A stretch of 64,000 nucleotides of DNA from Psammoneis japonica. Its lineage: Eukaryota. The position numbers and the translations under genes were made by a program. Positions 1-64,000 of this stretch are shown in pieces. The stretch lies in NCBI GenBank assembly GCA_008632985.1, contig QPGO01000091.1, forward strand, positions 1-64,000, written 5' to 3'. Positions within the stretch are counted from its first letter, which is position 1. The number at the start of each line of letters is the position of its first letter. The notes under the pieces were generated by a model. That model searched no databases and was not told where the DNA came from. It was given only the letters and a program-made list of their open reading frames with translations.

Positions 1-1104
1 CCCCTGGCTGATCATGCACGCACTTGGGGTGCAACAAAAAAAGATGATTGGCAGGACACACAAACGTGTTCTTGAGCGAAACGACAATGCACTGAGGAAG
101 AAGCAGCGTGATGCTGGTGTGACAGCATTCAACTCCGACGAAAAGTGGGAGCAGGTGTGTGCTCCACATGAATGCTTCAAGTGGCATCAAAGAATCTTGA
201 ACTCTGTTCATTGTGTTTGTGATTGCTGTCCCAAGGGAACAATCGCCTGGTCATTTGTGCACCACAGTCAAGTGGTGAACGCCATTTTTCAGTGTGATGG
301 GAGGGACAATTTTGCAAAGGATTCGCGATCGCTTCACTGTGGAATTCGGAAGTTTTTTCAGCATGTTTGCAACTCGGAAGAGACGCAGAATCCCACCAGA
401 GTCATGGAGGTGATTGAGCTCCTTGATCTGGTGGAGCAGAATCTGCGGCACCTGACGCCGGATGTCATTGGGGACGGGCACAATCCGGCAGACTTCTTGA
501 GTGAGAACGAGCTTTCAATGTTGGTGAACAACATGGACCACTCGTGTGAACATGCTGAAGTGCATCTCATGGCAGAGCTGGAACAGAATTGGGAGCTGTT
601 CGATGCTGCACACCTGGAGCAGTGCTGTTTTGGAAGGTGCTGTCTCTAGAGAATTGACGGCATGCACTTAGAACTGGCACCAGAGTGTCTGTGTTGTCCT
701 GCCATTGCATCAAATTGGCACTTTGTTCCGTGGTCGGGCCAAAAGGAGCAATTCAATGGCAAACTCTAGAAGGTTTTGGTGGTGGCACGAAATGGCACGT
801 GAACAAAAACATGCAAAAGCAGCACCGCGTGGCCCAAAAAGAACAACACAGTGTTTCCTCGTGGACAATTGTCGCTTGCTAGAGGAAGCATCATGGCAAA
901 GCAAGAGTGCTGCACTGTGCCGCACACTCTGGCCAGTGACACACAAAATTGGCCACTTTCAGTTTCACGCGTGGAAGCACGGCAAAAGTTTTTCTGCTTC
1001 GGGCAGTGCATTTCAATCTGATCTGCTTCCGACATGCGCACACAAGCAACAGTGTCAAAACCTCATCACCAGCATTGTTTTGCACACAAGTGCGAGCCAT
1101 TTCT

Positions 1105-1180
1105 CATTTCATTCAGCTCCTGGCCACAAATTGTTTGTGGCCATTTCATTCAGCTCCTGGCCACAAATTGTTTGTGGCCA
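1105..1180 (+). repeat. 2 x 37-bp tandem repeat, each unit with a hairpin TGGCCACAAA-ttg-TTTGTGGCCA
   Basis: Unit catttcattcagctcctggccacaaattgtttgtggc read twice. Confidence 0.9.
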
Positions 1181-2026
1181 ATTTTCCAAGCTGCTGGCTG
1201 GAGTGCCGGTGCACTCATTTGTCTTTCCTCATCATTGACCAAAAAGCATCAACGCTGACGCGATCTCTCTCACAATTGTGCATCATCAGACTGGCTCCTC
1301 TTGGACATGTGATCAAAGGTTTTCCTGCTTCAGTTCTCTCAGAAGAATCATTCTCCATGTCATCAACAAGCATCGGAAACACAATGTTCAAAAGCAGGGT
1401 CGTTGCTCATCTGCACACTCCCCTGGGCAATGCAGCTCCCATGGGTGTCAATGTCCACATTTCCACCAATGTTTGTGTCTGACAATTCCTTGCAGAGGCA
1501 AAATCATTCATTCCTGCCTCTGCATCTCTGCTCCATCCTCAATCTGTCCATCCTCTGCCGCATCGTGCACACCTCTGGCGATGTTTTTTGCATCTCTCAA
1601 CGGAGCTCCCAATTCTGATGCTGCGCCAATGCTTTCTGACCAAGGCTGTTGTTTTCCCAAATTCCATGACACTCACTTTCCATTTCTCTGAGTCACCTCC
1701 ATTGTTTGGAGCAGCCAGGGCTGGCTCGCCTTGCATGTCACTCACTGCAAGATTGACCAAATTTGCTCCAACAACAAGGGTGGCACTGATGACAGCCAAT
1801 GCGTTTCTTTCCTTTTGCACAATCCACCATGCAACAAGGAGAAAGCTGGTGAAAAATTTCCAGGAGTGCAGCAACAGATTGAAAATGCTTGCCAGCGGTG
1901 TTCCTCAAATGCCGTTTTTTGCTTCTGCTGGTTGCCCCCTGCAAAACAAGGAGCAATGAAAATTTTGATTTGTTCATCATGTTTTAGCGCACATGTTCAA
2001 TGCATCATCCATGAACCAACCATGGT

Positions 2027-2359
2027 TCAGGATGGATTCAGAACTCTGTCACTCTTGTTCTCATTGTCTTGTTTGTGTGACTCGCTCCTTGTGTGACCAT
2101 CAGGATCATCAGGCAAGGCACTCAAGACGAGCTTGAAATGCAATGAGTTGTTTCTTGCACCAGCAACCAATTGCAACAGTTCCATGTCTTGAGAGTGTGC
2201 AAGTCTCTGCTCAAGGTGTTTGTGGATGCTCGCGCATGAGAACAGAAACTCCACTGTCTCTGCCAATTTAATAGCAGCCCTCAAAGAAACAAAAAAAAAA
2301 TGTGCTTTTGTGTCATTCAGCCATCTTCCCTCCTCATGCTCTAAGGGACTCAACTGCAA
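2027..2359 (-). pseudogene. Possible Ulp1/C48 peptidase N-terminal fragment
   Basis: GRWLNDTKAHFF resembles the WLNDxxINFY motif; catalytic H-D-C not confidently found. Confidence 0.3.
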
Positions 2360-3633
2360 ACATTCTGATCACAGATCTGACAAGAACCCTTCCTCTGCTG
2401 GCAGATCACAACCCTTTTTACACAACAGCAAAATGGGGCTGCAACACTCAAGTTCAATGGACACACAACAAGAAGCAAAGTGCAGCAGCATCTTTCCTTC
2501 AATGTTGTGCGACCAAAAACATGTGGCTTTGTCATCATCATAAAAAAGCTTTTGGTTGCTGCCTTTTGTGCCTGTGTTTCAAACAATTTTGTTGATGTTT
2601 CGTTGCTGTCCCTGTCATCATCACTGCGCTTGCTGCGAAGCTGGCTGCAGTGGCTGGCTCCACCAATTTGATCAGACCTGAACCATCCAACAAAGAATGC
2701 ACCCATGCTTTGTCTTGAAGTCCAAACAAATGTGATGGACTGCCAAGGTCAGTGTTGGAATGTTCAGACCAAAGAAGTGTGTGCTGCATTGCAAGTTTCG
2801 TGAAACAATGCCACACAAAAAGGAGACGAGAGAGCATGGCATGCTCTTTGTTTTTCTGTAGAAATGAGATCTTCCTCCATGTTCCAAGTTTTCCTTGATC
2901 CTTTTTTGGCATGTCATCCAGGAGGGTGTCTCTGACCTTCGGTTAAAAAACAATCCAGGACCCTCGCTTTCTTGCAATGACAGGAGGCACCGGGGTGAGG
3001 CATTTGAGAAAGCACGTTCGTTTGTGCAGAGCATTTTTGAACCAGGCCTGTGGGGAGCATTGACCATTGTCTGTTCGTGTGTCGTTGCAGGTCGGTGCTG
3101 CACGGTGTGAATGCAGGGCCCTGCTGCACTTCGAAGTACGTGCAGTTGGCAATGGTGTTGTGCCGGTGCATGCTCGTGTGCCGTGCAGTGTGTGATGTTG
3201 TGTGGGCGGTGTGTGCGTGGGTTGTGTCGGTGGATGGTCAGACGGTTGTGACGTTGTGACCGTTGTCAACTGCAGATGGCGCCGAGCATGGTGACGTGGA
3301 TCGCCATTGTGCCAGATGTTTCATGTTGAGTTTGGGGCAGTGCCGCAGAACATTTTTGCTCGTGATTGATCATTGTGTGATGCACATGGTTGCATGTTGA
3401 ATGCAGATGCATTTCTGAAAAGCTGTCACGTTGGAGCCTGTTGCATCAAGCAAACCGGAGTCTGGATCTGGAAGGCAGTGTGACGTGTTTGCGTGTGGAA
3501 CAGCATGATTGAGGGCATGCAGATCCTGCTGGGTTTTCGTGGAACATCGACACAGTTTGTTGTTGTTGGCGGCAGACAGAGAATCTTCTGCATTGGGTGC
3601 ATTGTCATCATCGTAACCATGTCCAGTTGCGCA

Positions 3634-4060
3634 ATGGCTCGCGTCAAGCAAACCGCATGCAAAAATGCCACAGGTGTCGTCGGTCGCAAGAGGTTGCGCG
3701 GCAAAGCGGCAAAGGTTGATTCCAAGGCTGCCGGAAGGAAGAAACGTTGTCGCTTCCGCCCCGGAGTCGTCGCGTTGCGTGAGATCCGGAAGCATCAGAA
3801 GTCGACGGAGTTGTTGATCCAGAAGGCACCGTTTCAGCGGCTTGTTTGTCAAGTGGCTGGTGAAGTGACGAGTGAATTGGGAATGCAGGGGGTGAGATTC
3901 CAGTCGACGGCCATCTTGGCATTGCAGGAGGCTTTGGAAGCGCATCTGATTGGATTGCTTCATGACAGCAATCTTTGCGCTGTCCATGCGGGGCGTGTGA
4001 CCATCATGCCGAAGGATCTGATGTTGGCTTGACGCATTCATGGCAAACATTGCCAGGCAG
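3634..4060 (+). pseudogene. H3: Divergent histone H3-like gene, decayed (TGA at 4030 where canonical H3 has Arg)
   Basis: MARVKQTA.K...[32 protein letters not shown]...[17 protein letters not shown]...[26 protein letters not shown] aligns along the H3 histone fold. Confidence 0.93.
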
Positions 4061-10537: not shown

Positions 10538-11218
10538 ATGGCGTTGAAGCGATCAAAAAGGAAAGCATCTGAGCAAGCGCAACATGCCACAAGTGGTGCA
10601 GATGGCACAGAATGTGATTTGTTCAAAGACTTTCGAGTTGATCGCACGCATCCGGAAAAGGTAAAAAAACATGGAAGTCATTGTCAATGGACCTCAATGT
10701 TGCCTGTGGAGGTTGATGGTGTGTCACAGAAGGTCACCGTGAAACGACATGACAAGAACGCCACGCACAAGTTGTCCATTCTGTCCAAGAAGGGTGTCAT
10801 GGAAGATCACATCTTGGCAAAGTCCCTTCCTGTGAAGGACGTCATTGATGGTGACGCCCCTCACATGGTGGTTGCATTGCATCATTTTGAAAAGGGCAGC
10901 ACTGTGGGAGTGCATGTCGGAAAAGAACGGAGCGTGAACGCTTCTGAGTTGGAAAAAGCCTCGGTGTGTGTCCAAAAATGGCACCGGCACTTTTTGAAAC
11001 AGAAGGTGGTCAGAGATGTTGTGATGGGAATCGATGCAGCAGGAGGCATTGCATCTGGACGTCCCTTGCACCTTGGAGTGCATCTTGTCAACGACCCTGC
11101 TTTGTCTGGCGGGAAAGCGAGTGAAGCGAACTGTGAAGCAAAGACGGATGGCACCGTCGTCACTGCGAAAAGAGTCCATCCGGGACAAGAGTTGCTTTTC
11201 CATTGTGACTGGCAGTGA
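10538..11218 (+). pseudogene. SET-domain protein, decayed
   Basis: HLVNDP...ANCE...VVTAKRVHPGQELLFHCDW matches the SET NH..NC / GEELxxxY C-terminal motifs, with Y->C. Confidence 0.75.
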
Positions 11219-11219
11219 A

Positions 11220-11907
11220 CATGTTTTAAATTAAAGTGTGGTTGCAACGTCACACAGTGTGGCAATTGGCACTCCCGCCCACAAAAAGGACAACTTGGAG
11301 GTCCTTGAGAACTTCGCATCCAATGGCAGAGACAGCTTCGGTGGAAAGCATGAAGGCACACATGAGGCACAGCCACTTTGCAGTTGTCGTTGTCTTCCTT
11401 TTCGAAAGGCATTCTGCACATGCAGCATTCTTTGCCAGCGGCTCCCATGGTTGTCGGAAGGTTGCTGAAGCACTGATCTTCACAGACAATGCGTTTGATG
11501 CAATGAAGTTTGCTTGGATGAGTCTTCTTGCAAGGATCGCATCGGTTGATGGGGGGGATTCTCCGGAGACGCCTTGGTTCCGAAGTGTCAATTGGAGTGT
11601 GTTTGTTGCATGGAACCCAAGCATCTTCCTTGCAATCAACCCACCTTGTTTTTGTCCTCACGTCGTCTTTCCCGAATGCCTTGGGTCCTTGCAGTGCTTC
11701 AGCTTCATGTTTGATTTTTGCATTTCCGTGTTCTGCCAGGATCATTTTTCCGATGGGAGGCCGTTGAGACTTGAACGAAGCATGTTTGGTGGCAGCCCAA
11801 CAGACACGCTGCAGATGCGCTCCAGCCCCAGGTGGGAGCTCGTAGTGCTGATGTGTGACAACAATGACTTTTGTCATCCGTCGCATGTTTCGCACGCAGA
11901 TTTCCAC
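11220..11907 (-). pseudogene. RING-H2 finger protein, decayed
   Basis: CCMCRMPF...CLHAFHRSCLCHW...SCPFCG (C3H2C3 spacing) at ~11265-11435. Confidence 0.8.
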
Positions 11908-11998
11908 GTGTGATGTTTAAAAAAAATTGTCCAGACTCGCTGTTTTTGCGAAGCCCCAGACGTTTTACATGACAAATTTGCAGAAACAACAACGCGCT

Positions 11999-43212: not shown

Positions 43213-43232
43213 AAATTTGTCAGCAGCAACGC

Positions 43233-46951: not shown

Positions 46952-47003
<52 letters not shown>

Positions 47004-48200: not shown

Positions 48201-48303
48201 CGGCGCCGCAACGATCATAACGCATAACGCAACGACCACCCCGCCCTATTCAATGCACATTGTCAATTGGGCACGGCACTGCTGGGCAATCAAGTTGAAG
48301 AGA

Positions 48304-49479: not shown

Positions 49480-49819
49480 CTAGTAGGGCTACTGCAAAAC
49501 GATCGATCGGACGGAGTGCCAAATCGCATACTTTTTAGCACCGCGTTAGATCTCCGTAGCTCATTTTCTGATAGAACATGCTCATGTCTCTGCTCTCTGC
49601 GTAGTTAGTTGGAAGAACTCATCATAAAAGGCATTGAGCATACCACATAGCAGAACTCCCGATCGCCTGCCATGATGACCCGACGCAGACAAACTGACAC
49701 AACAGTTCTGCGAGCTTCTTCGTCACAAATCGATCGAGCTCGCGACACACCGACACGTGTTACGGTTTGTTGCTGGTTGCTGAACATACTATCATTCGAA
49801 TTCTTGATCAAGAAACACC

Positions 49820-51598
49820 ATGACGATGATTTCCGGATGTAACCGACGGTGTATTGCGGTTGTTGCTAATGCTGTGATTGCCTTGTCGTTTGCAAAGAAT
49901 GGGAGCCTGGCGTTTCAGCCTCCGCGAACGGTGATTCAGCCCCGCTCCATGCATCTTCAGCCACTCACCGTCATGGCCAGCAGCAGCAACAGCAGTCCTC
50001 GGGAGCAATTGATGGAGAAACTTCCTTCGCAGTCGGTTGTAAAAGCGGTAGAGAAACTCAATGGAAGTGGTATCATTGCATCCGACGTGGCGGCGACTGC
50101 GGGTATTTCGTTATCCAAGGCCAAACAGGAACTCACGACGCTTGCTGCGGTTTCTCAGGCAGATCTCGCCGTATCGAACGAGGGAGAAATCCTGTACAAA
50201 TTCCCAAAGAACTTGAACGGAGTCTTGACGCAAAACTCAGCCAAATACAAAACGATTCAAACCTTTCGAAAGCTCTGGCCGGGCATATTCTGGGGACTAC
50301 GCGTATCCTTTGGTGTGGCCCTGTTTGCTTCGTTGGTGGCTATTTTTAGCACAATTATGTTTATTCAAACGTCGGCTTCCACGAGCGATGACGACCGACG
50401 ACGTGATGATCGTGGATTTGGTGGTGGCGGTGGTGGTGGATTCGGAAGAGGCATGAGCTGGTATTGGGGACCGAGTCCGTTTGATTTCTTTTATTATCGT
50501 CCATATGGAACGTACGGGTATTATGGTGCAAACACTCGAAGTGATCCAGACGAAATGGGACTGTTGGAATCCATCTTTAGTTATGTCTTTGGCGATGGTA
50601 ATCCCAACACTGGTTTGGAGGAACGGCGCTTGAAGATTGTCTCTGACATGATTCGACAGAATGAAGGCGCAGTCACGGCTGAACAGCTTGCACCCTTTGT
50701 TGACGACGCACCATCACCAGACACCAGTTCCGATTATGTCGATGAGAGTTATGTTTTGCCAATCGTCTCGAGTCTGGGTGGGGAGCCCATTGTCACTGAG
50801 GATGGTGAGATTGTCTATGTCTTTCCGGAACTACTTCAAACTTCAGCCCTACCTGCTTACTCGTCGTCAAGGCCTAGTTTGACGACCGCACGAGATGCCA
50901 TGATTTTGCGCAAGGCAGGCTTGAAACCAACCGCAAAGCCGGGAGACATTATCAGACTCTTGAATTACAACGGGATCTCTACTGGTGGGGTGGTGGAGAA
51001 GCGAGAATTGATGGCAATGCTCGAGGAGGCTCTACCTGCCACGAGTGAAGCCGAAGAAGCCGAGTTGATGTCGTCAGATCCTACGGTTCTGCAAGAACGA
51101 GAGTACAAGTTCAGTTTGGCTCCTGGCTTTAACAAGTTCCTTGCCGGTGGATTAGGGGCCGTAAATCTTGGTGGAGCCCTGTATCTGGGTAACTTGCTCG
51201 GCCAGTACGCGGCATATGGTGTTCGACTTCCGGCTTACTTTGGAACAGTTCAAGCGTTGTATCCGTTGCTATTGGGTTATGCAGTCTTGTACAATGCCGT
51301 TCCTTTTGTTAGGAACTTGTGGATTGGAGCTGAAAACGAAAAAATAAGGCAACGCAACAAGAGGAGGAGGTTTTGGCAGAATGCTTTGGACAAGGCGCGA
51401 GACGGCAATACTAGGTTAGCGGCGAAGCTCAAGGCTGCGTCCAGATTCAGGAGGAAAGGCAAGAAGCTCAGTACCGCTGATTCCAACATTGTATACGACA
51501 CAAGCAAATCTATGGAAGTGAACGAAGAAAAAAGGCAGAAGCAGGATCTTGATGACTTTGACAAACTCCTCGAAGCGGACGATGCTCCATTTCAGTGA
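49820..51598 (+). CDS. Plastid-targeted At5g03900-like conserved membrane protein
   Basis: Signal peptide plus SLAFQPP (ASAFAP-type); LESIFSYVFGDGNPN, N.GAVTAEQLAP motifs. Confidence 0.8.
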   Translation: MTMISGCNRRCIAVVANAVIALSFAKNGSLAFQPPRTVIQPRSMHLQPLTVMASSSNSSPREQLMEKLPSQSVVKAVEKLNGSGIIASDVAATAGISLSKAKQELTTLAAVSQADLAVSNEGEILYKFPKNLNGVLTQNSAKYKTIQTFRKLWPGIFWGLRVSFGVALFASLVAIFSTIMFIQTSASTSDDDRRRDDRGFGGGGGGGFGRGMSWYWGPSPFDFFYYRPYGTYGYYGANTRSDPDEMGLLESIFSYVFGDGNPNTGLEERRLKIVSDMIRQNEGAVTAEQLAPFVDDAPSPDTSSDYVDESYVLPIVSSLGGEPIVTEDGEIVYVFPELLQTSALPAYSSSRPSLTTARDAMILRKAGLKPTAKPGDIIRLLNYNGISTGGVVEKRELMAMLEEALPATSEAEEAELMSSDPTVLQEREYKFSLAPGFNKFLAGGLGAVNLGGALYLGNLLGQYAAYGVRLPAYFGTVQALYPLLLGYAVLYNAVPFVRNLWIGAENEKIRQRNKRRRFWQNALDKARDGNTRLAAKLKAASRFRRKGKKLSTADSNIVYDTSKSMEVNEEKRQKQDLDDFDKLLEADDAPFQ

Positions 51599-52010
51599 AA
51601 GTTCCATTGACTTTCTAAGGTTTTAACATTTAGTTGAACAGTTTTAACGCCATCATCATCGGTTTACCTACAGGAGGTGGTCATTATTTGTGCTCCTCTA
51701 TTCGAGGGGGGTTTTCACGCGACATGTTGCAATGGCCGCAAGTTTCGAGTTCCGAAAATTTAGCCCGTGAAATTTGTATTGACGCTACATACGTAGCTCA
51801 TACTGACACTCGTAGTATGACAGATCTGAAACCGAAGCACTTGCCTAAATCTTTTTTTATTCGTGGATGATAATAGCATTCTTTTTCGAAAATTTGAGGA
51901 GGAACGACCTCCGATTTTCTTTTCGAATAACACCCCCAAAGGTTCGCTCTGAAAGATGAGCGGCATTGGACCAGCGCATAGCTTTACCAAACCTCCTAAA
52001 AATCTTCGAC

Positions 52011-53426
52011 ATGAAGCAAAAGACAATTACTTCGACTGGAATACGAATCTTGTTCGTGACCGCAGTGCTCGTTGCAACACGTCTCTTCTTTCTTCTGCAG
52101 CCTTGTGAACAGGTCGAAAACGAAGAAAAAGTGGCGCTCGATTCATCCACCACAACGACAGCAGCGACAGTGACCACTCCCACCAACAAGGTTCCATATC
52201 TTAGACATAACGATGAAAAGATTAGTGAGGATGAAGATTCAGTCTCAAAAGCTAGAACAGACATGGTGAAGTCGAAGGACAAACAGGCCGATAAGCCGTT
52301 GTTCGTACTCCATATCGGACCAAGAAAGACAGGAACCTCTACAATTCAACAAGTTGCTGCTGCCCACCAAAAAGTACTACAAGAAAACGACTTCTACTAT
52401 CTAGGGCATTTTGGTAAATCGCAGGAGACTAACCTGCATGCGTTGTCAGATGACTGTCTGGGACGATGCAGCCAGAAGAAGAAAAAGAAGAACAAACCAC
52501 GGAATTGCGACTGTGAGGGAAAATGGGCGGAATTTGCAACAAAAATAAAAGACCATCGCCAGAAAGGACATAACGTTTTCCTCTCCGACGAGACATTCAA
52601 TCGATTTCTTGTTGTGAAGGACAAGGAAGCGTTTTTGTGGGACCAATTGCTCTCAATTCTCGACGGTTGGAACGTCCGTGTAGTCTTCACCTACAGAAAA
52701 TACCATAGCTGGATCCCTTCGTCTTATATTCAATCATTTTATCCGAGTGGAGGGCTTACTGACAAACGACAAAGATGGCCCGACGATGGAGGAAGGATCA
52801 TTCCTTCCTTCCCTGAATACTTCGAACGATTTGTAGTACAAGAAGAGAAACAACCCATGACCATCTTGAACAAATGGAAAGAAAAGCTTCCCAGTGCTAC
52901 TTTCTTTGTTGCCAACATGCATCAGACTAGCGGTACATTCGTAACAAACTTTTTCTGTCAAGCCATGCCAGAAGCACGCAGAATCTGCGACCAACTCAAG
53001 AAGGAAGAGAAGGAAATATCCAGCACGAGTTTCAATTCTGCTTCGACCAAGGATGCCTTGCATTTTGATATGATTGCCACTGCCGCTTATATGGACGGCT
53101 TGTTAGGAAAGGAGTCTTCAAGGCCTCTTGTATCTCATGCCATTGAAGAGCATGCGACAAACACACTAGGGCTGAAGTCCCTCGTAGACTTTCCTTATCT
53201 CGAGTGTTTGTCTTCAGAACAGAGCGAACTGCTTTTCAACATGTCTGTAGCTTTGGAATCTGAGTTGTTGCCTGACTTATACAGCCAAGAAGAAATGAAA
53301 GAGTCGTTCAAGAATGCAACATCGAAGGGTTCGTTTTGCTCCGTCGATTCTCAACGCACTATAAGAGACCCAAAGTGGAGAGAATTCTTTCAAAAGCAAA
53401 AGAACACTGTAACCGATGGATCTTGA
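52011..53426 (+). CDS. Sulfotransferase-like P-loop protein, type II membrane
   Basis: LHIGPRKTGTSTIQ, LSDE, VVFTYRKYHSWIPSSY. Confidence 0.8.
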   Translation: MKQKTITSTGIRILFVTAVLVATRLFFLLQPCEQVENEEKVALDSSTTTTAATVTTPTNKVPYLRHNDEKISEDEDSVSKARTDMVKSKDKQADKPLFVLHIGPRKTGTSTIQQVAAAHQKVLQENDFYYLGHFGKSQETNLHALSDDCLGRCSQKKKKKNKPRNCDCEGKWAEFATKIKDHRQKGHNVFLSDETFNRFLVVKDKEAFLWDQLLSILDGWNVRVVFTYRKYHSWIPSSYIQSFYPSGGLTDKRQRWPDDGGRIIPSFPEYFERFVVQEEKQPMTILNKWKEKLPSATFFVANMHQTSGTFVTNFFCQAMPEARRICDQLKKEEKEISSTSFNSASTKDALHFDMIATAAYMDGLLGKESSRPLVSHAIEEHATNTLGLKSLVDFPYLECLSSEQSELLFNMSVALESELLPDLYSQEEMKESFKNATSKGSFCSVDSQRTIRDPKWREFFQKQKNTVTDGS

Positions 53427-54015
53427 AAGCTCCTCAAAAGCAGAAGTATTGTCCAAAAGCTTTGGCTACTACCAATCTTATTGGTTCAGGGGATCAGTTA
53501 TTGAACGGATGAATAACTTCATTCCAAAATAACGGATTCCAGCGTTGCTAGTAAAGCTATAACATGTAGTTCTCCGCGCGATGACGACTCGTTTCGTCTC
53601 TCTAAATCAGCTCTGTGTTTGCCTGCTAATGCTAATGCGATTGCTTTCGAGCATGCGATGTGTATCTAGGGTGTTTTTAGAAGTATCAAGCGAGATCACT
53701 GCATGGGGCGAGGATACGCGAAAAGTAAATTGTTTCATCGAACTTCGACTTCGATCCGAGTATTTATGCTGAAACCCCGCAGGGATCAACACCATGCAAG
53801 CGAGCTCATGGCTAGGGGACGATCGGTGGTACTACCATTGTTACTACAAAGTAGTAAAAGGAAATGTAAAAACAATAAATCTATGGCTTACTTGATTTTG
53901 CTGCCGAAATCTCGCCACCGAATGGCTGAAGCAAAAGCTAGCAATTCTCTTGACTATATTCTCTCTAGAGAGTTCGAGAGAGGGAGAGTGACTGCCAGAC
54001 ATTACTGGCTTCCTC

Positions 54016-55332
54016 CTAAGTTAGGTTTCTAAAGAATTTCTTCCATCTCGCGTCGAGCAAAGTAGCATTGGCATCAATCGAGCAAAATGCTCCCTTTTTC
54101 GTCTGATCTTCAAAATCAGAACGTAGGTCATCTGCCCCCTTGTTTGACCCAAGCATAATTGCTTGTGTTTCCAGGGCAATTTTCAATAGTTTTTCAGATT
54201 GGTCTTTGCTGAGGCATACCTGTGGAAAATCTGATATCGACTTCATGCCCAGCTCTAAAGCGAATTCTTCGGCTTTCGCGGATACCTCCTTTCTTGACAA
54301 CGACTTTTTCACCAATCCTTGCTGGTATGCCGTCACAACCAGCATGTCAAAATGAAGAACATCCTTGTTGTCTTTCGTATTCATCAAAAAGTTCGATCCT
54401 TCCTGTTTTAGTCTCTGACAAAAATGTTTTGCCTCGGGCATCATTGTGCAAAAAAAGTTGGTCAACATATCATCGGTGTCATGCATGTTGAAAACCTGAA
54501 CCTTTCCTGGGAATTTCTCTTCCCACTTGGATTTCACCCAATCGGGCTGTTTTGCGCTTTGTTGTGAAAACCGCATCAAGTATTCCGGGAAAGTCGGAAT
54601 TACCCAGCCCCCTCTATCCGGCCAACTTTCTCTTGCTTTCCGGTTGTGACTGCCTCTCGGATGATAGGACTGGTGATATGAGCTTGGAATCCAAGAGTGG
54701 TAGTGACGATACGTGAAGACAATGCGTAGCCGCCAACCGCGAAGAATAGGGAGAAGGTGATCCCACAACATGTCGTCTTTGTCCTCCAAGAAGAACCGAT
54801 TTAAGGTTTCATCAGATATCATCACATTATGACCCTGAGCAAAGTGCTCACTCACGGTGAGATTGAAGTCTTGCCACCGTTTCTCGCAGTTGCAGTCTCC
54901 ACCGGATTGACATTGGAGGCAAAAGTCCGACAGGAAGTGGAAGTTGGTTTCGTAGTGCTTGCCATAATGCCCCAGATAGTGAAAGTTCGCTCGTTCCAGC
55001 TCATCCTCGTTTGCTTGCGCAAACTTTTGAACAGCCGAAGTACCTGTCTTTCTTGGGCCAACGTGCAGGACCATCAATGGCGATCCAACTCTGGCTGAGC
55101 CAGACTCATCAGGGAGCACGGGTATTCGATCATCCTCATTTTTCTGTTCATTCTCAGTTCCGACAACCTCGCTCATGTTTTGCCCTTTTAAGACGACATC
55201 TAATCTCGCTCGCAGCAACACATTCTCATGGTGTAGCACTCTTATATTGTCCAACAATCTAAAAGTGGCAGTTGCCATAAAGGTGGCCACCGCAACTAGC
55301 ATCCATCGGAGCACCATGTTGGGGGCAACCAT
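54016..55332 (-). CDS. Sulfotransferase-like P-loop protein, paralog of 52011-53426
   Basis: LHVGPRKTGTSAVQ, ISDE, IVFTYRHYHSWIPSSY, NFFCTMMPEA, LHFDM. Confidence 0.8.
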   Translation of the reverse strand: MVAPNMVLRWMLVAVATFMATATFRLLDNIRVLHHENVLLRARLDVVLKGQNMSEVVGTENEQKNEDDRIPVLPDESGSARVGSPLMVLHVGPRKTGTSAVQKFAQANEDELERANFHYLGHYGKHYETNFHFLSDFCLQCQSGGDCNCEKRWQDFNLTVSEHFAQGHNVMISDETLNRFFLEDKDDMLWDHLLPILRGWRLRIVFTYRHYHSWIPSSYHQSYHPRGSHNRKARESWPDRGGWVIPTFPEYLMRFSQQSAKQPDWVKSKWEEKFPGKVQVFNMHDTDDMLTNFFCTMMPEAKHFCQRLKQEGSNFLMNTKDNKDVLHFDMLVVTAYQQGLVKKSLSRKEVSAKAEEFALELGMKSISDFPQVCLSKDQSEKLLKIALETQAIMLGSNKGADDLRSDFEDQTKKGAFCSIDANATLLDARWKKFFRNLT

Positions 55333-55808
55333 GCACGTAATAGTAACTCTCGTCAATTGAAGCGACGCATGACGAAAAGTGACGAAAGAGCCCGGTTGTT
55401 GCCGTTTTTGCGGTTGTTTACAGCTTCTCGTTTAGTCTGTCTTGCGCCGTTTCCAAAATTTATTTAACGTACGCTCCGTCCGAAGACATTGGGGTATTTA
55501 TATAGACATTTATTATATATACACATACCAATAAGGTTATATTTCAAAACACAATGGGATCGGACTTCTGCCAAAAACATGCCATGTCCCCCGCCCTCCT
55601 CTGCTTCGAGCAGACACACTTCCTGGGTTTCAACACGTAAAACGGATTGGGCACCACCAGAACGTCGTTTAGACGGACACTGAGACAACAAACGCAAGAC
55701 TGCGAACTGCGAGAGCGCGAAACATGACACATTGACCATGCTGCGGCTGAAGGGTGAAACGTTATCGTCGGCTTTCGCATACGGTAGCTGAGTTGTAATA
55801 ATTGAAGT

Positions 55809-57024
55809 ATGGCTCATCGCAGACGAGGAGTCGGTGTAGGCCGATCTTCAGGTCCAAAGTAAGCACGGAAAATTCCTGTTGTATCGAAAGCCTCAGAAAT
55901 CTCGCATCCTACGCCGCTAACTACATCCTGGATGATGACGACCTAGCGCTATACCTTATGAATCTTTTGTTCCATGAAGATTGCGTTTATAACCTTTGTA
56001 TTCGTACTGTCTGACAGTTTCTGGTTGCTGATAGAAAGAAGCAAGATTGTGCTGAAATACGATCTTGCGCTCACTTTTTCTCGATTTTGATTGTTACAAA
56101 CTTTAACAGATTTTCAAAGAAGGCAGAAGAAATGAAATCCATGTCAATGCAATCTGCCATGGAGACAGTTGAAAAGGTATTTGGCTCGTTGTCTCTCTGT
56201 CTATAGTGCATCCCAAGAAGATTATCATGCCTCATCTTTCGTTTCTCGAATCCTCAGCTCGAAGTAAAACTGACCCAGTTTGCCAAAAAGCACAAGAATG
56301 AAATCCAGCAGGATCCAGCGTTTCGACAAAAGTTTTTAGAAATGTGTGGTCCACTCGGAGTCGATCCGTTGCTGTCCAAGAAGTCCTTTTGGTCGAATTT
56401 GTTGGGAGATATGAGTGACTTTTACTACGAACTAGCGGTCAAAGTTGCAGAGGTTTGTGTTGCAACCAGAAGTCGAAACGGTGGCATTATATCCGTTGGT
56501 GAGGTGAGCGAGATTCTTGCCAAGCGTGGGACAAAATTCAAAATGGCACAAGGTAGTGATCGGAAATCTTCATCAAAGAAAAAGAAAAAGGAGCTTCTGT
56601 ACAGCACAAACGACATTGAAACAGCCATTAAGAAACTCAGCGCTTTGGGTGGTGGGTTTCGCACCATTCAAGTCGGATCATCCACAATGATTGTCTCTGT
56701 TCCAACCGAACTTGACAATGATCACATGGAAATCATGACTCTTGCCCAAGAGCGCGAAGGCCAGGTGTCGCTGGAAGAAGTCCAGAATGCAACGAAATGG
56801 AGTGAAGAAAGATCAAAACGAGCGTTGGATTTGTTGTTGGGACAAGGAATGGCATGGATAGATGAATACCGGGGTCAAGAGCTGTATTGGTTTCCAAGGT
56901 TTGTGTTGCTCCTTCCAACGCCTGTATTATTCTCCGTGTCGTGTGGCTTTGTTTTTTATCTCACACCCCTTCTTCCAATTTTCTTTCCAGTGTCTGGAAA
57001 GAAGGCTTTAGCATCGAGAGCTAG
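55809..57024 (+). CDS. SNF8: ESCRT-II subunit Vps22/SNF8; exons 55809-55858, 56110-56176, 56258-56898, 56991-57024
   Basis: MAHRRRGVGVG; FAKKHKNEIQQDPAFRQKFLEMCGPLGVDPL; DFYYELAV; GMAWID..YWFPS; three GT-AG introns keep the frame. Confidence 0.93.
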
Positions 57025-57782
57025 AAATCTGATGTAGTGTGTTTAGTAGGATTTGCTTGTCTATGAAGGTGGACGCATCAGGAACAATTGAACTGTCCCC
57101 AAAACGAGCCCAAGTTAGTCCACTCGAACCCCTACACAGTTTCGTATCGAACGTCTGAAGTACCAAACCGAGTAACCTGCACATACCGTATGGCTCAGTA
57201 ATATTCCTGTTTGTGGCGCGACCAATAGCTCTTTTGGTACTTCTTGGAACAAAGATTGTACTCCGGACTCATGAGCTTGCAGTTGTCGCACTTTTTTACT
57301 GCGTTTGCGCCGATTATGAAATTCGTTTCCCGCATACTCTTCAATTCACACTCTCCATCTCGAAGTCAATAATGGACGCTGTAGAGTGTGTTTTCAAAGT
57401 CAACGAAGCCAAAAATTTAAGAATGGGAATCCCCGTCGCCGCCATGAGAGCGTCTCTTTGCGGGAGAATTTTCAAAGTGAACGATACGACTACTTGGACT
57501 GAGTCATTCAGTCGGTCAGGCGTCCGTTTTTCCCGCCAAAACTCGCGTAGATTCTACGTGACTTCAGTAGAGAAAAAAACTTTCGTATATTCTCCCGTAG
57601 CATTCTACGAATGACGCCTGTCCATCCCACCGCTCGAAGAATCGCCCTCACAAATCTTCACCCGCAACGCCTCGCAAAATGAGCACAAGACACAAGAGCT
57701 TTGTGCTAAGGACGACAACGACGACAAATCTGAAGATTAGAAAGGTCTTTGACTCTATTTTGTTGTTATACAAAGCATCAAG

Positions 57783-59785
57783 ATGAATTTAGAACTGTTG
57801 GATCCCTTTCGTCGTCAAATTCCCGACCGGGTGGATTCAACCTTGGCTCGCCCTGAAGTTCTGAGTTCAAGTGCTAGCAAAAAGAGCGGAGACGAAGAAG
57901 ATAAGCAAGAAAGGGCAAGGATTCGTCAAAGAAGGACGTCGAAGATGTAGATAAGGGCGCATATCATGTTGCGTTTAATCGTCGTGGAACGTACTTGGCG
58001 GTTGGTTATGCTGGAGGAACTGTAGCCGTTCATGACTTTATGAGCCGGACGCTCTCGGCTCTGTATCGCCCACCCGATGCCACCATGATTTCGAGTAGTG
58101 CCTCGATGATAATGACGATGACGACGAGGATGAGGAGCAAAAGGACACGCCGGATGCACCAGTCACATTTCCATACGGAGTAACATCGGTGACGTGGTCG
58201 CGTCGTTCCAAGACGCTCCTGGCTGGTGCCGTGGGCGATTCACAAATTCGGCTCTTTGATACAACACACCCGTTGGGACCTGACGATTGTTTTTCACCTA
58301 CTACTCAGCCAAATGAGGATACTGATGCTCAAAAGGGAAGCGGAGATGACGCTGCGCCGCCTACAAGTAGTAAAAAGAAGCTCCATCACCATCAGCCATT
58401 ACATCCGTTATCAACGACAATGAAGATTCTGAAAAGGAAATTGCCAAAGCCAAGAAGAATTACGTAGTCTCGTCTCGCGTGGCGACGAAATGATGAGACA
58501 GCCACGCGTGCTGCATAACGTACAAGAGGTAACTTTTTCGCCCAATCCGAGTAGTGGTCCAGTGATATGGATGTTGACAATTCCGCTGCAGCAATGCGAG
58601 AACGTCACGAGGCTGCACTTCAAAAAATGAGGGAGGCAGACGCTAGATCAGCGACACCGCACAGACTCAAGAGATTTGCAACGTTACTGTGGAAGATGAA
58701 GGAGCCTCTCGGAGGTTCCCTTCAGGTTCATCCTCGACGGAGCACCTGTGGACTAGCCGTAATGCAAAGTGGGGCACTCGTCGTGTTTTACGTCCCACCC
58801 ACGGCTTGGGAATCATTCTTTGCTCTTTGGAAACCAAGCCAATTGTCAAATTTGCCACTCTCTACAATGACGAGGAACACAAGGTGACGTGTGCCGCCTT
58901 CGATCCGAACGGCGAAAAGATTTATGCAGCCACCAAGGATGGAATTATGATTGGTTTTGAAAACATGTCAAGGTTGTTCAAAGACCTTGAGCACAATGCC
59001 AGTCAAATGAAACCCATCCATCCAAAGTTTGAAATTGGTATTCCATCCAATGCCGCAACCGTTTGGCACTTGCAGGTATCAAGGAATGGCAAGTTTGTTT
59101 TGCTGAATTGTGCAGACTCGGCTTTGCGCCTATACGATACATCCGAATGCTGGTCGCAGAGCCAGAAGCGTCCAAACGTCAAGCCGACATTTTGCTTTCA
59201 AGATGTGGTTTCCAAGGTGCCCTTTGCTAGTTGCGACTTTTCGGGTGATGGGGAATACGTCGTGGGAGGATGCAATGGCAGCCGGGATGACAAGTATGAG
59301 TTGTATATATGGAACACGGCAACGGGTACGCTCATGGACCGCCTCATGGGTGCACAAGTATCGCTGTACAGCGTCACGTGGCATCCCACACGATCCTTTT
59401 TGGCTGTAGCCACGTCGGATGGTCTTATCGATATATGGGGACCACGAATGGATTGGACGGCTTTTGCACCCGACTTTCAAGCTTTGCCAATGAATGTGGA
59501 GTACGTCGAGGAAGAGGACGAGTTTGATAATGTTGTTCAAGACAACCTGTTTCGGCTGAAGAAACTACGGATATTGACGTGATGCAGCAAGATCAGCCCA
59601 TGGATGAGAGTGACGAAGTGGATGTTGTGACTGTCGAACCTGTACCTGTATTTGCTTCAGACAGCGAAAGCGAATCAGAAGTATTCTATTTTGGCACCAA
59701 AATCAAAGCGACAATGGTTGCAAGAGGACGTCCTAGCGGTTTGAGTTCTGGCAAAGCTGCAGTCGTCGAAGACAAGGAACCTTAG
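57783..59785 (+). CDS. RBBP5: RBBP5/Swd1 WD40 subunit of COMPASS, with several apparent 1-nt deletions
   Basis: MNLELLDPF, FNRRGTYLAVG, WHPTRSFLA, WTAFAPDFQALPMNVEYVEEEDEFD; spread over successive frames. Confidence 0.88.
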
Positions 59786-60045
59786 TTAAGGATTGAGAGC
59801 TATAACCAGTACGGGTATGTGGGGTTAAATTGCATGGTATGTTAGTCTGGTGCTATCCTGAATAGTTGCTCCATGAAGTCAATGTGCGGTAACTTAAGAG
59901 ACAAGCCCAACGCACTGTGGTGAAGTGACAAGACCTGCTCTGCTCGACAGCCACAGTAGTTTAGACGGTCCGCAAGAACTCTCCGACGCACGCGATCCTC
60001 ATGCAGTAAGACTTGCCCATCTAAAACATACCGACACAGCCCACA

Positions 60046-60774
60046 TCAAGCAGACGCCAAGCAACCAAAGAAGTGATAGACTTCATCGTCCATATTCAAC
60101 GCTGCCACTTGAGTTTGACAATTGTTGCAATACACAGAATAGTAAGTTCTTCTGTTGGTTTGTGATTATGATCGACAATGTAGTTACGTTGTCGGTCTTC
60201 TTCACGTTGATGCACACTGGTTTGCTTTGGTATAAGCTGCCCATCTTGTTCTGAATAGACATACTGTTGATCCCAATTGACACCGATATTCATGACAAAC
60301 ATGGCACGATACTGATTTTCGTACCGTTCGTGCTGTTGACAGTCCATACATACCGTTTGGAAACAACAAGGGCAGTTCAAAACAGCATCCGAATTTCGTG
60401 GTTTTAACACTTTCATTTGATGTGTCGTTTCTTGACTTTTGCTTTGTTGTTGCCATCATGGCTTGATGAGGGCGCAGGCTGCTGCTTTTTTACTACAGAG
60501 ATCGTCTCTTGCACGCCACCCCGCATGTGCTTGTACACCCACGCTTCATCTTCTTGATCTAAATTTTCGCCGTACAACTCATCTGGTGGCTTAGTTGTTG
60601 ATTCATTCTTTCGTTATCATGGTTACTCTCCAAGGAAGTGTCGTCGTCGTCGTGATGCACAGACGATTCTTCTTCTTCTTCGGCGCCTGAAACAATTGCG
60701 GGTCGAGCGGTGTCAGCCCGACGAACCTGAACTGCAGCGGCAGCTTCGTTGTTGTTCTCCTGATTCTGATCCAT
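60046..60774 (-). CDS. EAPP: E2F-associated phosphoprotein (Eapp_C domain), frameshifted in this sequence
   Basis: LDQEDEAWV, SDAVLNCPCCFQTVCMDCQQHERYENQYRAMFVMN, CNNCQTQVA...DEVYHFF. Confidence 0.88.
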
Positions 60775-61158
60775 TGAAAGCAAAAAAATACCGCAGTGTT
60801 CTATGGATAATAATAGTCTTGGACGTGTCGCAATAAGGCACACTGCTCTCTCTTGCGGTACCATAGGTGCTACTAGGTGGTAGGTGCCGTTCGTGTTCTT
60901 GTCTGTCTCATCCGCCCGTCACACATACCTAGGTACCGGTAGACCTTCCTTCATTTCAAGATTTTTGCCTGGGTACGGACAGACTGTACGTCAAGCGGAA
61001 ATTGGGCAGAATTTTTTGTTGGAACTCTCCCTGCGTCCGCCATGAAATCGCGTGACACTAGCAGCAATGGACATCAACAACACATCTATCTCGAAGACCA
61101 ATCACCGCCTTGCCACAGAACACATTTCACACAACACGTCTTTGTGTGTTGCAAAAGA

Positions 61159-63552
61159 ATGAGCATTGTCAACTTCAGCTCCGTTGGGTCTCGCGCAGAG
61201 CTGGCAAAAGCTCTTGGTGTGCCTGAAGGTGCACTGGACTTGGTGTCATTCAGCGAGTCCCCTTGCAAGGGCACGAGAGGCGACAGCAATTGCATTCACC
61301 TGGCAGTCTGTCAAAATCAGGGATGCTGTGTTGTTCATGGCTATTCTTGGTGTCCTCGTTTGACCGACAGGAAAGGAAAGCCGAAAGAAAAGAGGGGCGA
61401 CGCGGCCATCTGCTTCTTGGGCTCAAGTTCCTGCCACGACACAACAGCCAATCTGTGCCCGCCGCTTGCTGCTGTGAGAACCCAATCTGTGAGGGCATTG
61501 GGTGCTCTCATTTTGGTGTGTTTCGTCTTCCCGCCGGCCTTGCAGACAAAAAGCCATTCTTGCGAAAGATGGGAGTTTCAAATGAAACCATCAAAAAGTT
61601 GCTGGAGAATGCAGATGCGTTGCGACATGCCCCTTGGCACCTACACTGCCACAACCGGTGTCGTGGAGAAGATGGGAGATGGAAGATTCAGGACCGTAAA
61701 GAATGTCGAGATGGAGACAAATTTGTGCATCCGTTCCCGCCTCCAAATTGCAGTCCGCAAGAATGCATCAACGAAGTGAGGAACCATCACTCGGTCATGG
61801 AAGGAGTTGCGCTGCCACAGGCAATGCATTGCCGGGTTGGGCATCCAAGATGGCAGCCATGCAAGCAGGAAATGGGCAGCCACTCCGTGCAATTAATGGC
61901 GCCAAAAGTTGGGATTCAAAACGAACTCCAACAACCGGCAACGACAACCAACTGCACAAACGTCAGGCGGTTGACCCGGAAGAGCATGAGCGCATCAAGG
62001 AGGAACTCCGTCTTGTAAAGGCAAAGCTTGAAAGTGCATTAACAAGGAACAAGGAGGCAGAAGCTGTGATGGAGATCAAGTGTGGTGAACTCCGAATTGC
62101 ACTCGAAACATCAGACAAGGAGAAAGAGAAACACAAGAAGCAAGCCATCCAGAACATGGAGAATCTCATGGCGACAAAAACAATTCTCTCTCATGATGAT
62201 CTAAAGCCTGGAGGCTTGTTGGGGGGGTTTGTTGGGGACTGCACCTGCTTTCCTGCATTTAAATGCAACGAAGCCTTCCTGGACTTTCTTGGTCATGGCG
62301 AAGCATGCGATCCCGCGACGGCTTGTGTGAGAACATCAGACGGCACTCCAGGGTCAGCTGGGAAGAAAGGAACGGCAAATCGTGAGAGAGACAGAGCAGT
62401 GCAGGAGAGTGGCAATGAGTCAGATTTCTGTGTGCCGCTGGATGATTCAATGGGCGATGGTGAAAATTTTGAGAACTTGACCGAGGATGAAAATGTGGAC
62501 CCGAAGCATGGCGGCAGCCGCGAGGGCAGTGGGAAGAAATGGCTCTTGTCTTGGAAGATGGAGTGGCTTGTCTACAATGTGCGCGCTCATTGCGGATTTA
62601 CCATGCGACAAATTTGTCCTTTGTTTGGCATGGGGGCACCGGGTCTAGTCTCTGACATGGCACATGGTTGGGCGAACCTGTTGAACGATGCACTCGCTCG
62701 CCTCTTTCCAACACCAACACGGAGTCAAATGTTGCGAGCACATCCTGTGAGTGTGATTCGCAAATTTGGTCATGCCCTCATCTTCATGCTTCTAGACGCA
62801 ACTGAAGAAGGTGCCCAAAATGCATCAATGAAAACAATGAACTCTGCGTTGTTTTCGGCATGCAAGCATGGATCAACTGTAAAGTGGCTAGTGGGTTCAG
62901 ATCCAATTGGAACAACATGGCACAAGTCGACACCAAGAGGACACCCTGGTGGCATCAGTGACCCGGCACAGACAATGGTGACAAAGATTCTTGATCAAGT
63001 TCCGTTTGGGCATGCAGTTGAAGTCGACAAAGGATTCCTGACAGACAACGACTGTGCCATGAAAGGCATCATTTGCACTCGTCCTCAGAAGAAACTGGAC
63101 AACCAAATGCAGCAATCGAAGGCGGACACGGCTTTGACGCAGAAAGTTGGCAAAACAAGAATCCCAACAGAACAAGCCAATGGACAAATGAAACAGTCCA
63201 CTCATTTTTCAACGACAAGATGAAGTTGCTGCAACTTGGATTGGCGGACGTCATGTTCCGTGTCGGATGTCTCGCGCAGAACTTCAAGGTTGGTTTCATT
63301 CAGGAGCAGGATGGAAGGAACGACCAAGAGACTGGGAGGCCTTGTTGTGCAGAGATTCGACATTGCGGAGGGGAAGACAGTGGATCAGTGGACGTGAGAC
63401 CCAATGTTGAGCTTCGGGGAACGGAAAAGGAGATCGAGCGGTGGCAAGAGATTCGAGAAAAAAATGAGGAAATGACCGATCTGGAAGTGTCCGAGAAAGT
63501 TCTAGCTGAGGATTGGCCAGCAAAGCTCAAGGGTGAACTAGACTCACTGTAA
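61159..63552 (+). mobile_element. PIF/Harbinger-ISL2EU-type DDE transposase with possible THAP-like N-terminus, decayed
   Basis: LLDATE, FSACKHGSTVKWLVG, GGISD, VDKGF, RIPTEQANGQMK (DDE_Tnp_4 pattern with Y->C/H); upstream CxxxxC..FRLP..H. Confidence 0.85.
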
Positions 63553-64000
63553 TGTTTGTGATGGTGTGACATTTAGTTCTCCGAATCGGCACCCAGATGT
63601 CGCGACGATCCCGCAGTTGTGCGCCAAAATCCCAGCGCGTTTTGCTCAAGCAGGTGTCACTTCAAAAAGATTTAAAATTATGACACAATCAACAGCTGGA
63701 ACATCATCTACAGAACAAGAGCTTTCTGATGATGTTGCTTTTATTTCCATGCCCCCAACAGATCCGAATTCTCATCCACATGTCCTGCCGACCCCGCACT
63801 TGCGCGCCACAAAATCCCAGTGCGTTTTGCTCGAGCAGGCATTGCTTCAGCAAAAACTGGAATTACAGCACAATCAATGGCAATGACATCATCTGAGGAA
63901 ATGACTGATCTGGAAGTGTCCGAGAAAGTTCTAGCTGAGGATTGGCCGGCAAAGCTCAAGGGTGAACTGGACTCACTGTGATGTTCATGATGGCGCAACA
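63465..64000 (+). repeat. 107-bp direct duplication (63465-63571 / 63894-64000, cut by the window end)
   Basis: Exact alignment apart from 7 dinucleotide sites. Confidence 0.95.

Follow-up and report, generated by a model that had tools for sequence, protein, structure and literature searches.

In the rhizarian Bigelowiella natans, integrated DNA of nucleocytoplasmic large DNA viruses (NCLDV) and of virophages is subject to TpA→TpG/CpA hypermutation (Mettrop et al., bioRxiv 10.64898/2026.01.13.699255, 2026). According to this preprint, 210 of 211 and 20 of 20 mutations in two integrated viral regions, seen in only some of the mutation-accumulation lines, were A→G or T→C changes, all of them at TpA, and these regions mutate ∼ 1000 times faster than the rest of the genome, at 6–9 × 10−7 per site per generation (Mettrop et al., 2026). 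The same source counts 124 TpA-poor, CpA+TpG-rich clusters in the B. natans genome, finds TpA-depleted coding sequences enriched in DDE and reverse transcriptase (RT) domains, and suggests an ADAT2-like adenine deaminase (Mettrop et al., 2026). Repeat-induced point mutation (RIP) of fungi works in the opposite direction, turning CpA/TpG into TpA and leaving AT-rich, stop-rich DNA (PMC2621366, PMC7882544). Here we describe a 64,000-nt stretch of the genome of Psammoneis japonica (positions 1–64,000 of contig QPGO01000091.1, assembly GCA_008632985.1; hereafter the window), in which repeated, transposon-derived DNA has very probably undergone real, in-place TpA→TpG/CpA hypermutation.

Judging from its footprint, the process in the window appears to be of the same kind as that in B. 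natans and would represent a stramenopile case. We found no report of TpA hypermutation in diatoms in the literature searched, and the word 'diatom' does not occur in the B. natans preprint. An earlier note on this DNA, which had proposed a repeat-targeted mutator, knew of no described mechanism of this kind; this is outdated, as the same spectrum has been measured in B. natans (Mettrop et al., 2026). What is new here is a stramenopile case with saturating conversion aimed at transposable elements (TEs), sharp borders, CpG decay over the same extent and an influence of the flanking bases.

Sliding-window observed/expected (o/e) ratios of TpA and CpG divided the window into blocks with low TpA and islands with normal TpA. 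In 1-kb windows, TpA o/e was 0.01–0.22 over 1–24, 28–44, 47–48 and 61–64 kb and 0.32–0.76 in the gene islands, and TG and CA o/e in the depleted 1-kb windows were 1.2–2.1. The two thresholds of the B. natans preprint (TpA depletion and CpA+TpG enrichment) were passed by 34 of the 64 one-kb windows, in runs of 5, 6, 5 and 10. A two-state hidden Markov model (HMM) on P(A|T) across the 64,000 nt resolved five low-TA domains that alternate with three gene islands (TA o/e 0.04–0.10 vs 0.56–0.68; Table 1). Its borders (22089/22090, 22664/22669, 24402/24404, 27811/27819, 44634/44638, 46658/46662, 48215/48218, 61087/61089 and 63501/63503) lie almost exactly where the earlier note had drawn sharp edges, and its figure of 22 TA in the first 5.2 kb, obtained by eye, proved exact by listed positions. 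The low blocks (44,602 bp, GC 0.49–0.51) contain 176 TA, compared with a mean of 2783.5 (sd 41, minimum 2677) in 200 mononucleotide shuffles.

The borders are abrupt. The spacing between TA dinucleotides changes from several hundred bp to 10–30 bp at single positions, a switch completed within ∼ 30 bp, and there is no gradient of TA density on the host side. At 44.6 kb the compositional edge matches a repeat edge: six contigs assembled from sequencing run X1 depart from the window sequence at 44649, 11–15 bp from the border 44634/44638. (Runs X1–X3 come from one sample of one study and are possibly the source of the assembly; they are not independent confirmation.) Hypermutation would thus stop at the edges of repeat domains, within ∼ 30 bp of adjoining genes.

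Loss of TpA removes two of the three stop codons. Counted on both strands, the low blocks have 171 TAA, 94 TAG and 1919 TGA triplets, compared with 321, 347 and 689 in host DNA. With almost only TGA left as a stop, long open reading frames (ORFs) are therefore about twice as frequent, 17.9 ORFs of at least 150 aa per 10 kb in the low blocks vs 8.2 in host DNA. The six-frame content of Tyr is 0.10% in the low blocks vs 2.35% in host DNA, that of His 4.8% vs 3.2%, and that of Cys 5.6% vs 3.6%. The earlier note's explanation of a flood of Cys/His-rich ORFs by the loss of TAA and TAG agrees with all three of these measures, stop counts, residue shares and ORF density. The expected coding outcome of the process would be Tyr→His/Cys, ATA-encoded Ile→Thr/Met and the loss of TAA and TAG stops, with inactivation of the elements.

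By dinucleotide composition, the missing TA has been converted to TG and CA and is not merely absent. TA makes up 0.39% of dinucleotides in the blocks vs 4.18% in host DNA (down 3.79 points), and CG 3.77% vs 5.21% (down 1.44 points). The combined deficit of 5.23 points is set against a gain of 5.67 points in the TG+CA share (20.12% vs 14.45%). A regression over the 64 one-kb windows gave TG+CA = 0.239 − 1.14(±0.12)TA − 0.87(±0.12)CG, with R2 of 0.78. Overall counts of TG and CA within the low blocks are about equal; the ratio (TG−CA)/(TG+CA) ranges from −0.10 to +0.27, shows no consistent relation to gene orientation and partly reflects intrinsic G/T skew. This balance bears on the suggestion that TA was removed by selection, for instance by a TA-cutting nuclease or through avoidance of TA-targeting insertions. 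TpA is mildly under-represented in most genomes, and even the host islands have TA o/e of 0.56–0.68. Nevertheless, the TA loss is matched one-for-one by the TG/CA gain, dead pseudogenes are among the affected sequences, and per-site selection could not strip ∼ 95% of TA from all frames and from non-coding DNA, so that selection is an extremely unlikely cause.

Comparison of copies points the same way. In 12 pairs of paralogous segments within the window, CA/TG accounted for 26 of the 110 adjacent double mismatches and every other class for at most 5; among single differences, TA/TG and TA/CA together numbered 6, and CG/TG and CG/CA together 26. By hand arithmetic, CpG decay at f ∼ 0.4–0.55 predicts only ∼ 4–8 of the 26 CA/TG doubles. 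The rest would match the prediction of independent, near-complete decisions for TA→TG or TA→CA in each copy, and the ratio of doubles to singles (26:6) would fit roughly 95% saturation at TA. In the direct-repeat pair of domain 3 (Table 1), 494 aligned columns include 13 TG↔CA adjacent doubles, and at other sites 5 CG↔TG and 1 TA↔CA. The pair 63465–63564/63894–63993 (94% identical), which involves the intermediate segment, differs exclusively at TA- or CG-derived sites, including CTAG/CTGG and GTAA/GTGA, and appears to catch TA conversion in mid-process. Other genomic copies represented among the X1 contigs have adjacent CA→TG or TG→CA differences at 29786/7, 33912/3 and 35340/1, and transitions constitute 1402 of the 1886 listed kinds of change between these contigs and the window. 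Fixed differences therefore provide indirect evidence of A→G and T→C changes at TpA that yield TpG or CpA.

The direct-repeat pair of domain 3 could be taken for long terminal repeats; such a reading is not established, as the intervening DNA contains no RT or integrase and 39.7 and 43.2 kb are connected by an inverted duplication. This inverted duplication (39652–39877 and 43046–43212, 87% identical) is accompanied by opposite-strand joints in the X1 contigs, and the interior of the 27.8–44.6 kb block is rearranged or nested.

The paralogues also bear on the idea that the repeats were already TA-poor at insertion, owing to a TA-free family consensus or a TA-poor source, and that the domain borders are simply insertion edges. 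The coincidence of borders with repeat ends and the TA-free consensus of the 138-bp tandem array would agree with it. Such an origin does not account for TG in one paralogue facing CA in the other (26 of 110 doubles) or for pairs that still show TA vs TG, and the depletion is shared by unrelated families (Harbinger, Helitron, H3, GT34-like and unclassified repeats); Harbinger relatives elsewhere have normal TA. We consider this explanation improbable.

Homologues indicate the direction of change. In the H3, Harbinger and PIF1 copies taken together, 14 conserved Tyr positions read His in seven cases and Cys in two, and only one Tyr is kept. Both aligned Tyr residues of the histone H3 pseudogene read His (RKYQKST→RKHQKST and EAY→EAH), and CpG-type changes have turned Arg positions into Cys, Gln and a TGA stop; all of these substitutions had been listed in the earlier note, and all are present in the H3 copy. 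The relatives of the dead Harbinger transposase include proteins of the diatoms Extubocellulus, Attheya, Thalassiosira and Cyclotella. Aligned with 64 diatom and metagenome homologues, the Harbinger ORF keeps one of eight conserved Tyr (the others being 3 His, 1 Cys, 1 Gly, 1 Arg and 1 Phe) and five of ten conserved Ile (3 Thr, 1 Met and 1 Val), compared with 155 of 194 other conserved columns. The motif 'SAYK' reads SACK in the window copy, as the earlier note had it, and the Tyr content of the ORF is 0.2% vs 1.7–4.1% across 64 of 64 homologues. Similarly, the PIF1 ORF retains none of four conserved Tyr (2 His, 1 Cys and 1 Phe) and 49 of 63 other columns when compared with 102 homologue segments, and contains 0.2% Tyr vs 1.2–6.6% in these segments. 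A further claim of the earlier note, a terminal Tyr→Cys change in a SET domain, could not be upheld: a Pfam scan of the low blocks (221 ORFs, read from stop to stop and ≥ 90 aa long) detected no SET domain at E ≤ 0.01.

When the Harbinger alignment was used to scan metagenomes, 30 of 112 pattern matches were confirmed as encoding relatives. All 30 loci had TA o/e of 0.47–0.96, with 0.33 in the lowest 1-kb window, and the Harbinger family is not TA-poor by nature. The window copies, with their conserved Tyr lost and stops in their ORFs, could not have served as active source elements. A second, TpA-specific mutator distinct from CpG decay, as put forward in the earlier note, is thus borne out by the mass balance, the Tyr→His/Cys polarity, the TG↔CA doubles of paralogues and the normal TA of relatives.

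The affected DNA is diverse. The Harbinger ORF, the Helitron-like remnant with its PIF1 helicase (which has in-frame stops and at least one frameshift), the H3 pseudogene, the GT34-like ORF and non-coding DNA are all depleted in TpA. This variety, together with the near-equality of TG and CA, points to action on DNA and on both strands. It is difficult to reconcile with editing at the RNA level, in which repeat transcripts would undergo ADAR-like A→I conversion and then be reverse-transcribed and inserted anew. ADAR has a preference for U on the 5′ side of its target A, as stated by the authors of the B. natans preprint (Mettrop et al., 2026). On the other hand, the depleted sequences include cut-and-paste and rolling-circle DNA transposons, a tandem array, non-coding DNA and host-type pseudogene DNA; the scan of 221 ORFs in the low blocks detected neither RT nor integrase domains; TG and CA balance each other on both strands; and copies differ at the same site after duplication. 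ADARs are, to our knowledge, metazoan proteins, and RNA-level editing can be all but dismissed here.

Separately, host-type genes within the TA-free domains (the GT34-like ORF, the H3 pseudogene and the weakly matching RING-finger ORF) contain 0–0.3% Tyr; as duplicated or captured cellular genes, they are depleted as strongly as the transposase genes.

The repeated nature of domain 3 (27.8–44.6 kb) was deduced from its copy number in contigs, without a recognizable TE protein domain. In the part of the Pfam scan that covered this and the later blocks (91 ORFs), the ORFs of domain 3 gave no match except for one sub-threshold chance hit, and the longest of them (33304–35601, 766 aa) found no relative among 3304 candidates at E ≤ 0.001. 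As stops are nearly absent from this DNA, that ORF is probably spurious or mutated past recognition. In run X1, 3256 contig pieces fall on 27.8–47.8 kb at ≥ 82% likeness, and the summed word depth is ∼ 3500 at 35 kb vs ∼ 110 over the host gene; therefore, much of the block is highly repeated. Three bins (36.5–37.1, 41.1–41.8 and 43.8–44.5 kb) are at or below host depth at this likeness and are equally TA-free. It looks as if the affected unit is the domain rather than each repeat copy, or else the low-copy parts are old repeats that have diverged past detection. The description of the pattern as repeat-restricted in the earlier note thus stands as regards bounded domains and normal host islands, and does not extend to the low-copy parts of this block or to the host-type genes, which are equally depleted.

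A sequencing or assembly artefact would produce a similar picture if a base were modified in repeats only and TA there were consequently called as TG or CA. Modified bases do cause systematic long-read miscalls, and the runs found come from one sample, which may be the source of the assembly. However, X1 k-mer contigs at depth ∼ 27–37 match the TA-free sequence exactly over 36021–37413, 39802–40757, 41059–41986, 41963–43147 and 43872–44474, and another exact contig (46431–46942, depth 60.2) spans the border 46658/46662; these kilobase-long matches and the bridged border therefore suggest accurate reads and no chimeric join. Miscalls at a palindromic site would be expected to conflict between strands and not to settle on TG or CA, and the proteins also carry ordinary decay (CpG-type stops and a frameshift). 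We regard an artefact as highly improbable.

Loss of CpG accompanies that of TpA. CG o/e is 0.29–0.75 in the low-TA blocks vs 0.90–0.99 in host DNA, and CG/TG and CG/CA variants are found among the units of the tandem array and among paralogues, which together with the Arg→Cys/Gln/stop changes in H3 substantiates the earlier note's statement that CG→TG/CA change acts as well. The mark that cytosine methylation usually leaves is therefore present in the low-TA domains. Deamination of 5-methylcytosine (5mC) yields the same products, TG and CA, in the same domains, but cannot remove TpA. Within the blocks, 1-kb values of CG o/e vary from 0.16 to 1.13 while the loss of TpA is uniform; the latter is therefore a separate process, faster or more complete. 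The TpA process would thus run beside ordinary CpG→TpG/CpA decay and independently of it. In the 138-bp array, which is C/T-rich, has CG o/e of ∼ 1.1 and a consensus without TA, many CG→TG/CA variants distinguish the units, and CpG decay is still in progress.

The surviving TA sites are not a random sample. Counting both strands, the base 3′ of A in surviving TA is A in 171 cases, G in 94, C in 66 and T in 21, compared with 322, 351, 444 and 419 in host DNA. TTAA accounts for 43 of the 176 surviving TA vs 25 of 762 in host DNA (Fisher p = 3e-17), ATAT survives once (46 in host DNA) and ATAC/GTAT not at all (118 in host DNA). The survival of NTAN sites can be fitted by multiplying two factors, one per strand, that rise in the order T<C<G<<A with the base 3′ of A or, which is equivalent, A<G<C<<T with the base 5′ of T. 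The survivor contexts by themselves fit either side of the site, and either chemistry, equally well. Such context dependence is as expected of an enzyme.

These observations would be explained by A:T→G:C transitions at either base of the palindromic TpA, proceeding almost to saturation and giving TpG or CpA. The conversion would be enzymatic and would take place on DNA in situ, after insertion or duplication. Our preferred chemistry, in which a TadA/ADAT-like deaminase would turn adenine into hypoxanthine, is put forward tentatively. In the natural tRNA substrate of the TadA/ADAT family, a U lies just 5′ of the target A, and this preference would explain the specificity for TpA. Targeting would probably follow the silencing of TEs, given that the CpG-decay footprint of 5mC is seen in these same domains. 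At the per-site rates of B. natans, a 95% loss of TA would require on the order of a million generations, a short time in evolutionary terms.

Thymine oxidation is an alternative chemistry: a TET/JBP-type dioxygenase would make 5-hydroxymethyluracil (5hmU), and further 5-formyluracil (5fU), at TpA in silenced repeats, with T→C changes following from mispairing or error-prone repair; TA would then appear as CA on one strand and as TG on the other. 5fU pairs with G, and at Tyr codons coding-strand T→C outnumbers A→G (7 His, 2 Cys). In dinoflagellates, a TET/JBP homologue makes repeat-enriched 5hmU, and blocking it de-represses TEs (PMC11572971). The same source cites an older observation that in C. 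cohnii 5hmU takes the place of T preferentially in TA and TC, and reports that the enzyme prefers single-stranded DNA (PMC11572971). Against this, TG and CA are about equally numerous overall, and the survivor contexts favour neither chemistry; 5hmU:A pairs are, as far as we know, not strongly mutagenic. Thymine oxidation thus seems unlikely, if less so than the explanations without a TpA-directed mutator. The dinoflagellate system resembles the window in that a pyrimidine modification with a TA/TC preference is directed at repeats of an alga of the stramenopile–alveolate–rhizarian (SAR) clade and silences TEs; it differs in being an epigenetic mark that the source does not show to be mutagenic (PMC11572971).

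Several observations weigh against the hypermutation reading or its details. The consensus of the 138-bp array is TA-free, so the array is uninformative on TA mutation and shows CpG decay only. The polarity rests on distant homologues, whose identity does not exceed 62% for Harbinger (best tblastn segment) and ∼ 48% for PIF1. TG↔CA mismatches also arise from CpG decay, and the share of each source was estimated only roughly. The only runs that contain this stretch (X1–X3) come from a single sample. A test of the tetranucleotide product against host DNA gave correlations of 0.38 under the context model and 0.11 under a 50/50 split, and its background noise equalled the signal in size. Finally, the His:Cys ratio of 7:2 at conserved Tyr clashes, in small numbers, with a simple reading in which the 3′ neighbour of the target A decides; the excess of His may point to a further rule of strand or context.

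The closest likeness is with B. natans: the dinucleotide target and the products are the same, the change is limited to foreign or selfish DNA in normal surroundings, and in both cases the depleted sequences include DDE transposases (Mettrop et al., 2026). The differences are several. The organism is a diatom-like stramenopile instead of a rhizarian; the targets are DNA transposons, unclassified repeats and embedded pseudogenes, with no viral gene recognized in the window. A fixed footprint, near saturation (o/e 0.04–0.10), stands against measured de novo mutations and a Rho of 0.45 in the NCLDV region, and the co-extensive CpG decay and the sparing of TTAA seen here are not found in the preprint as available to us (Mettrop et al., 2026).

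The window shares with RIP the confinement to repeats, dinucleotide-specific transitions at the DNA level, destruction of the coding capacity of TEs and sharp compositional domains. The polarity is opposite: TpA becomes CpA/TpG, GC stays at ∼ 0.49–0.51, and TAA and TAG vanish. There is no creation of TpA by C→T at CpA and no AT-rich DNA. RIP features C5-methyltransferase-like machinery, premeiotic timing and a duplication-length rule. As regards a stop at duplication edges, borders in the window are sharp, and one coincides with a repeat end; the low-copy parts of 27.8–44.6 kb are depleted as fully as the rest.

ADAR and APOBEC likewise generate deaminase-driven, clustered transitions in selfish elements, and ADAR prefers a 5′ U. 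Their substrates are RNA or intermediates of reverse transcription, a single strand is edited in each event, and the change made by APOBEC is C→T. In the window, the changes fall on DNA transposons and on both strands: instead of A→G on the transcript strand of retro-copied sequences only, Harbinger and Helitron sequences are hit and TG ∼ CA.

If TpA hypermutation has indeed left this saturating footprint in a diatom-like stramenopile, then it is not a quirk of one species, ordinary transposons and not only integrated giant viruses are targeted, and almost every TpA in a domain can be erased with the next gene left untouched. More speculatively, and with less confidence than we place in the deamination chemistry, TpA-directed hypermutation may be a widespread genome defence of SAR-clade algae, shared by diatoms and chlorarachniophytes, a mirror image of RIP that is guided to repeats with almost base-pair precision, spares TTAA, outruns CpG decay and may employ a TadA/ADAT-like adenine deaminase acting on DNA, which would be a natural 'adenine base editor'. 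Precise repeat recognition, the existence in eukaryotes of a natural deaminase of DNA adenine or of a thymine modification that is mutagenic, and the independent origin of RIP-like defences with opposite chemistry all become testable. For annotation, TA-free DNA yields many long spurious ORFs, over-extended gene models are likely next to such domains, and TpA mutations hide TE proteins from homology searches.

Table 1. Segments and features of the window, with dinucleotide o/e ratios where available.
Feature	Position	Strand	TA o/e	CG o/e	Remarks
TpA-depleted domain 1	5–22089		0.078	0.75	H3 pseudogene, RING ORF, Helitron-like remnants, tandem array
Histone H3 pseudogene	3631–4029	+			Aligns to solved H3, E ∼ 1e-40
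RING-finger ORF	10885–11916	−			Weak match below Pfam cutoff; Tyr 0.3%, Cys 8.1%
Helitron-like Rep/helicase remnant	13695–19708	−			PIF1 14595–15965; weak DUF6570 match 18512–19708
138-bp × 10.6 tandem array	20445–21899				Match to STPRs (Pfam; 23-aa DNA-binding repeat) in minus-strand frames, E 5.7e-17
Short intermediate segment	22090–22664		0.32		
TpA-depleted domain 2	22669–24402		0.049		Holds GT34-like ORF
GT34-like (galactosyltransferase) ORF	22969–24159	+			0% Tyr; inside domain 2
Normal island	24404–27811		0.68	0.99	
TpA-depleted domain 3	27819–44634		0.046	0.42	
Direct-repeat pair, left copy	27928–28418	+			84% identical to right copy
Direct-repeat pair, right copy	43231–43712	+			84% identical to left copy
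Normal island with GT90-family gene	44638–46658		0.57		
GT90-family gene	45037–46461	+			
TpA-depleted domain 4	46662–48215		0.039	0.29	One contig bridges left border exactly
Normal gene island	48218–61087		0.56	0.98	Sulfotransferase, VPS22 and WD40 genes
VPS22 gene	56207–57037	+			
TpA-depleted domain 5	61089–63501		0.097		Holds dead Harbinger transposase ORF
Dead Harbinger (DDE_Tnp_4) transposase ORF	61700–63220	+			Domain match; diatom and metagenome homologues
Intermediate segment	63503–63991		0.30		Second Harbinger C-terminal fragment

The islands hold intron-poor eukaryotic genes for a GT90 glycosyltransferase, a sulfotransferase, the ESCRT-II subunit VPS22/EAP30 and a WD40 protein. The VPS22 ORF has 763 relatives, the best of them at 66–70% identity; the named matches among the best 120 of these are all from diatoms (Seminavis, Epithemia, Trieres, Cyclotella, Pseudo-nitzschia and Thalassiosira), at 55–63% identity. 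Together with the diatom relatives of the Harbinger transposase, these matches indicate a diatom-like stramenopile host without a close relative in the sequence collections searched. Three long ORFs have no Pfam match: 49808–51598 (+, 596 aa), 51960–53426 (+, 488 aa) and 54016–55431 (−, 471 aa). The sulfotransferase ORF (47884–49479, +) starts with an open frame of ∼ 330 nt that lies upstream, inside the TA-free block, an extension due to the lack of TAA and TAG stops in that block. The same small TA-free domain contains a perfect (CT)23.5 microsatellite (46955–47001), at which contigs break. Over the start of the GT90 gene (44791–45293), a contig from run X2 has 50 differing letters and 24 gap letters in ∼ 500 nt, and a diverged second haplotype or paralogue of this gene exists in the sequenced sample.

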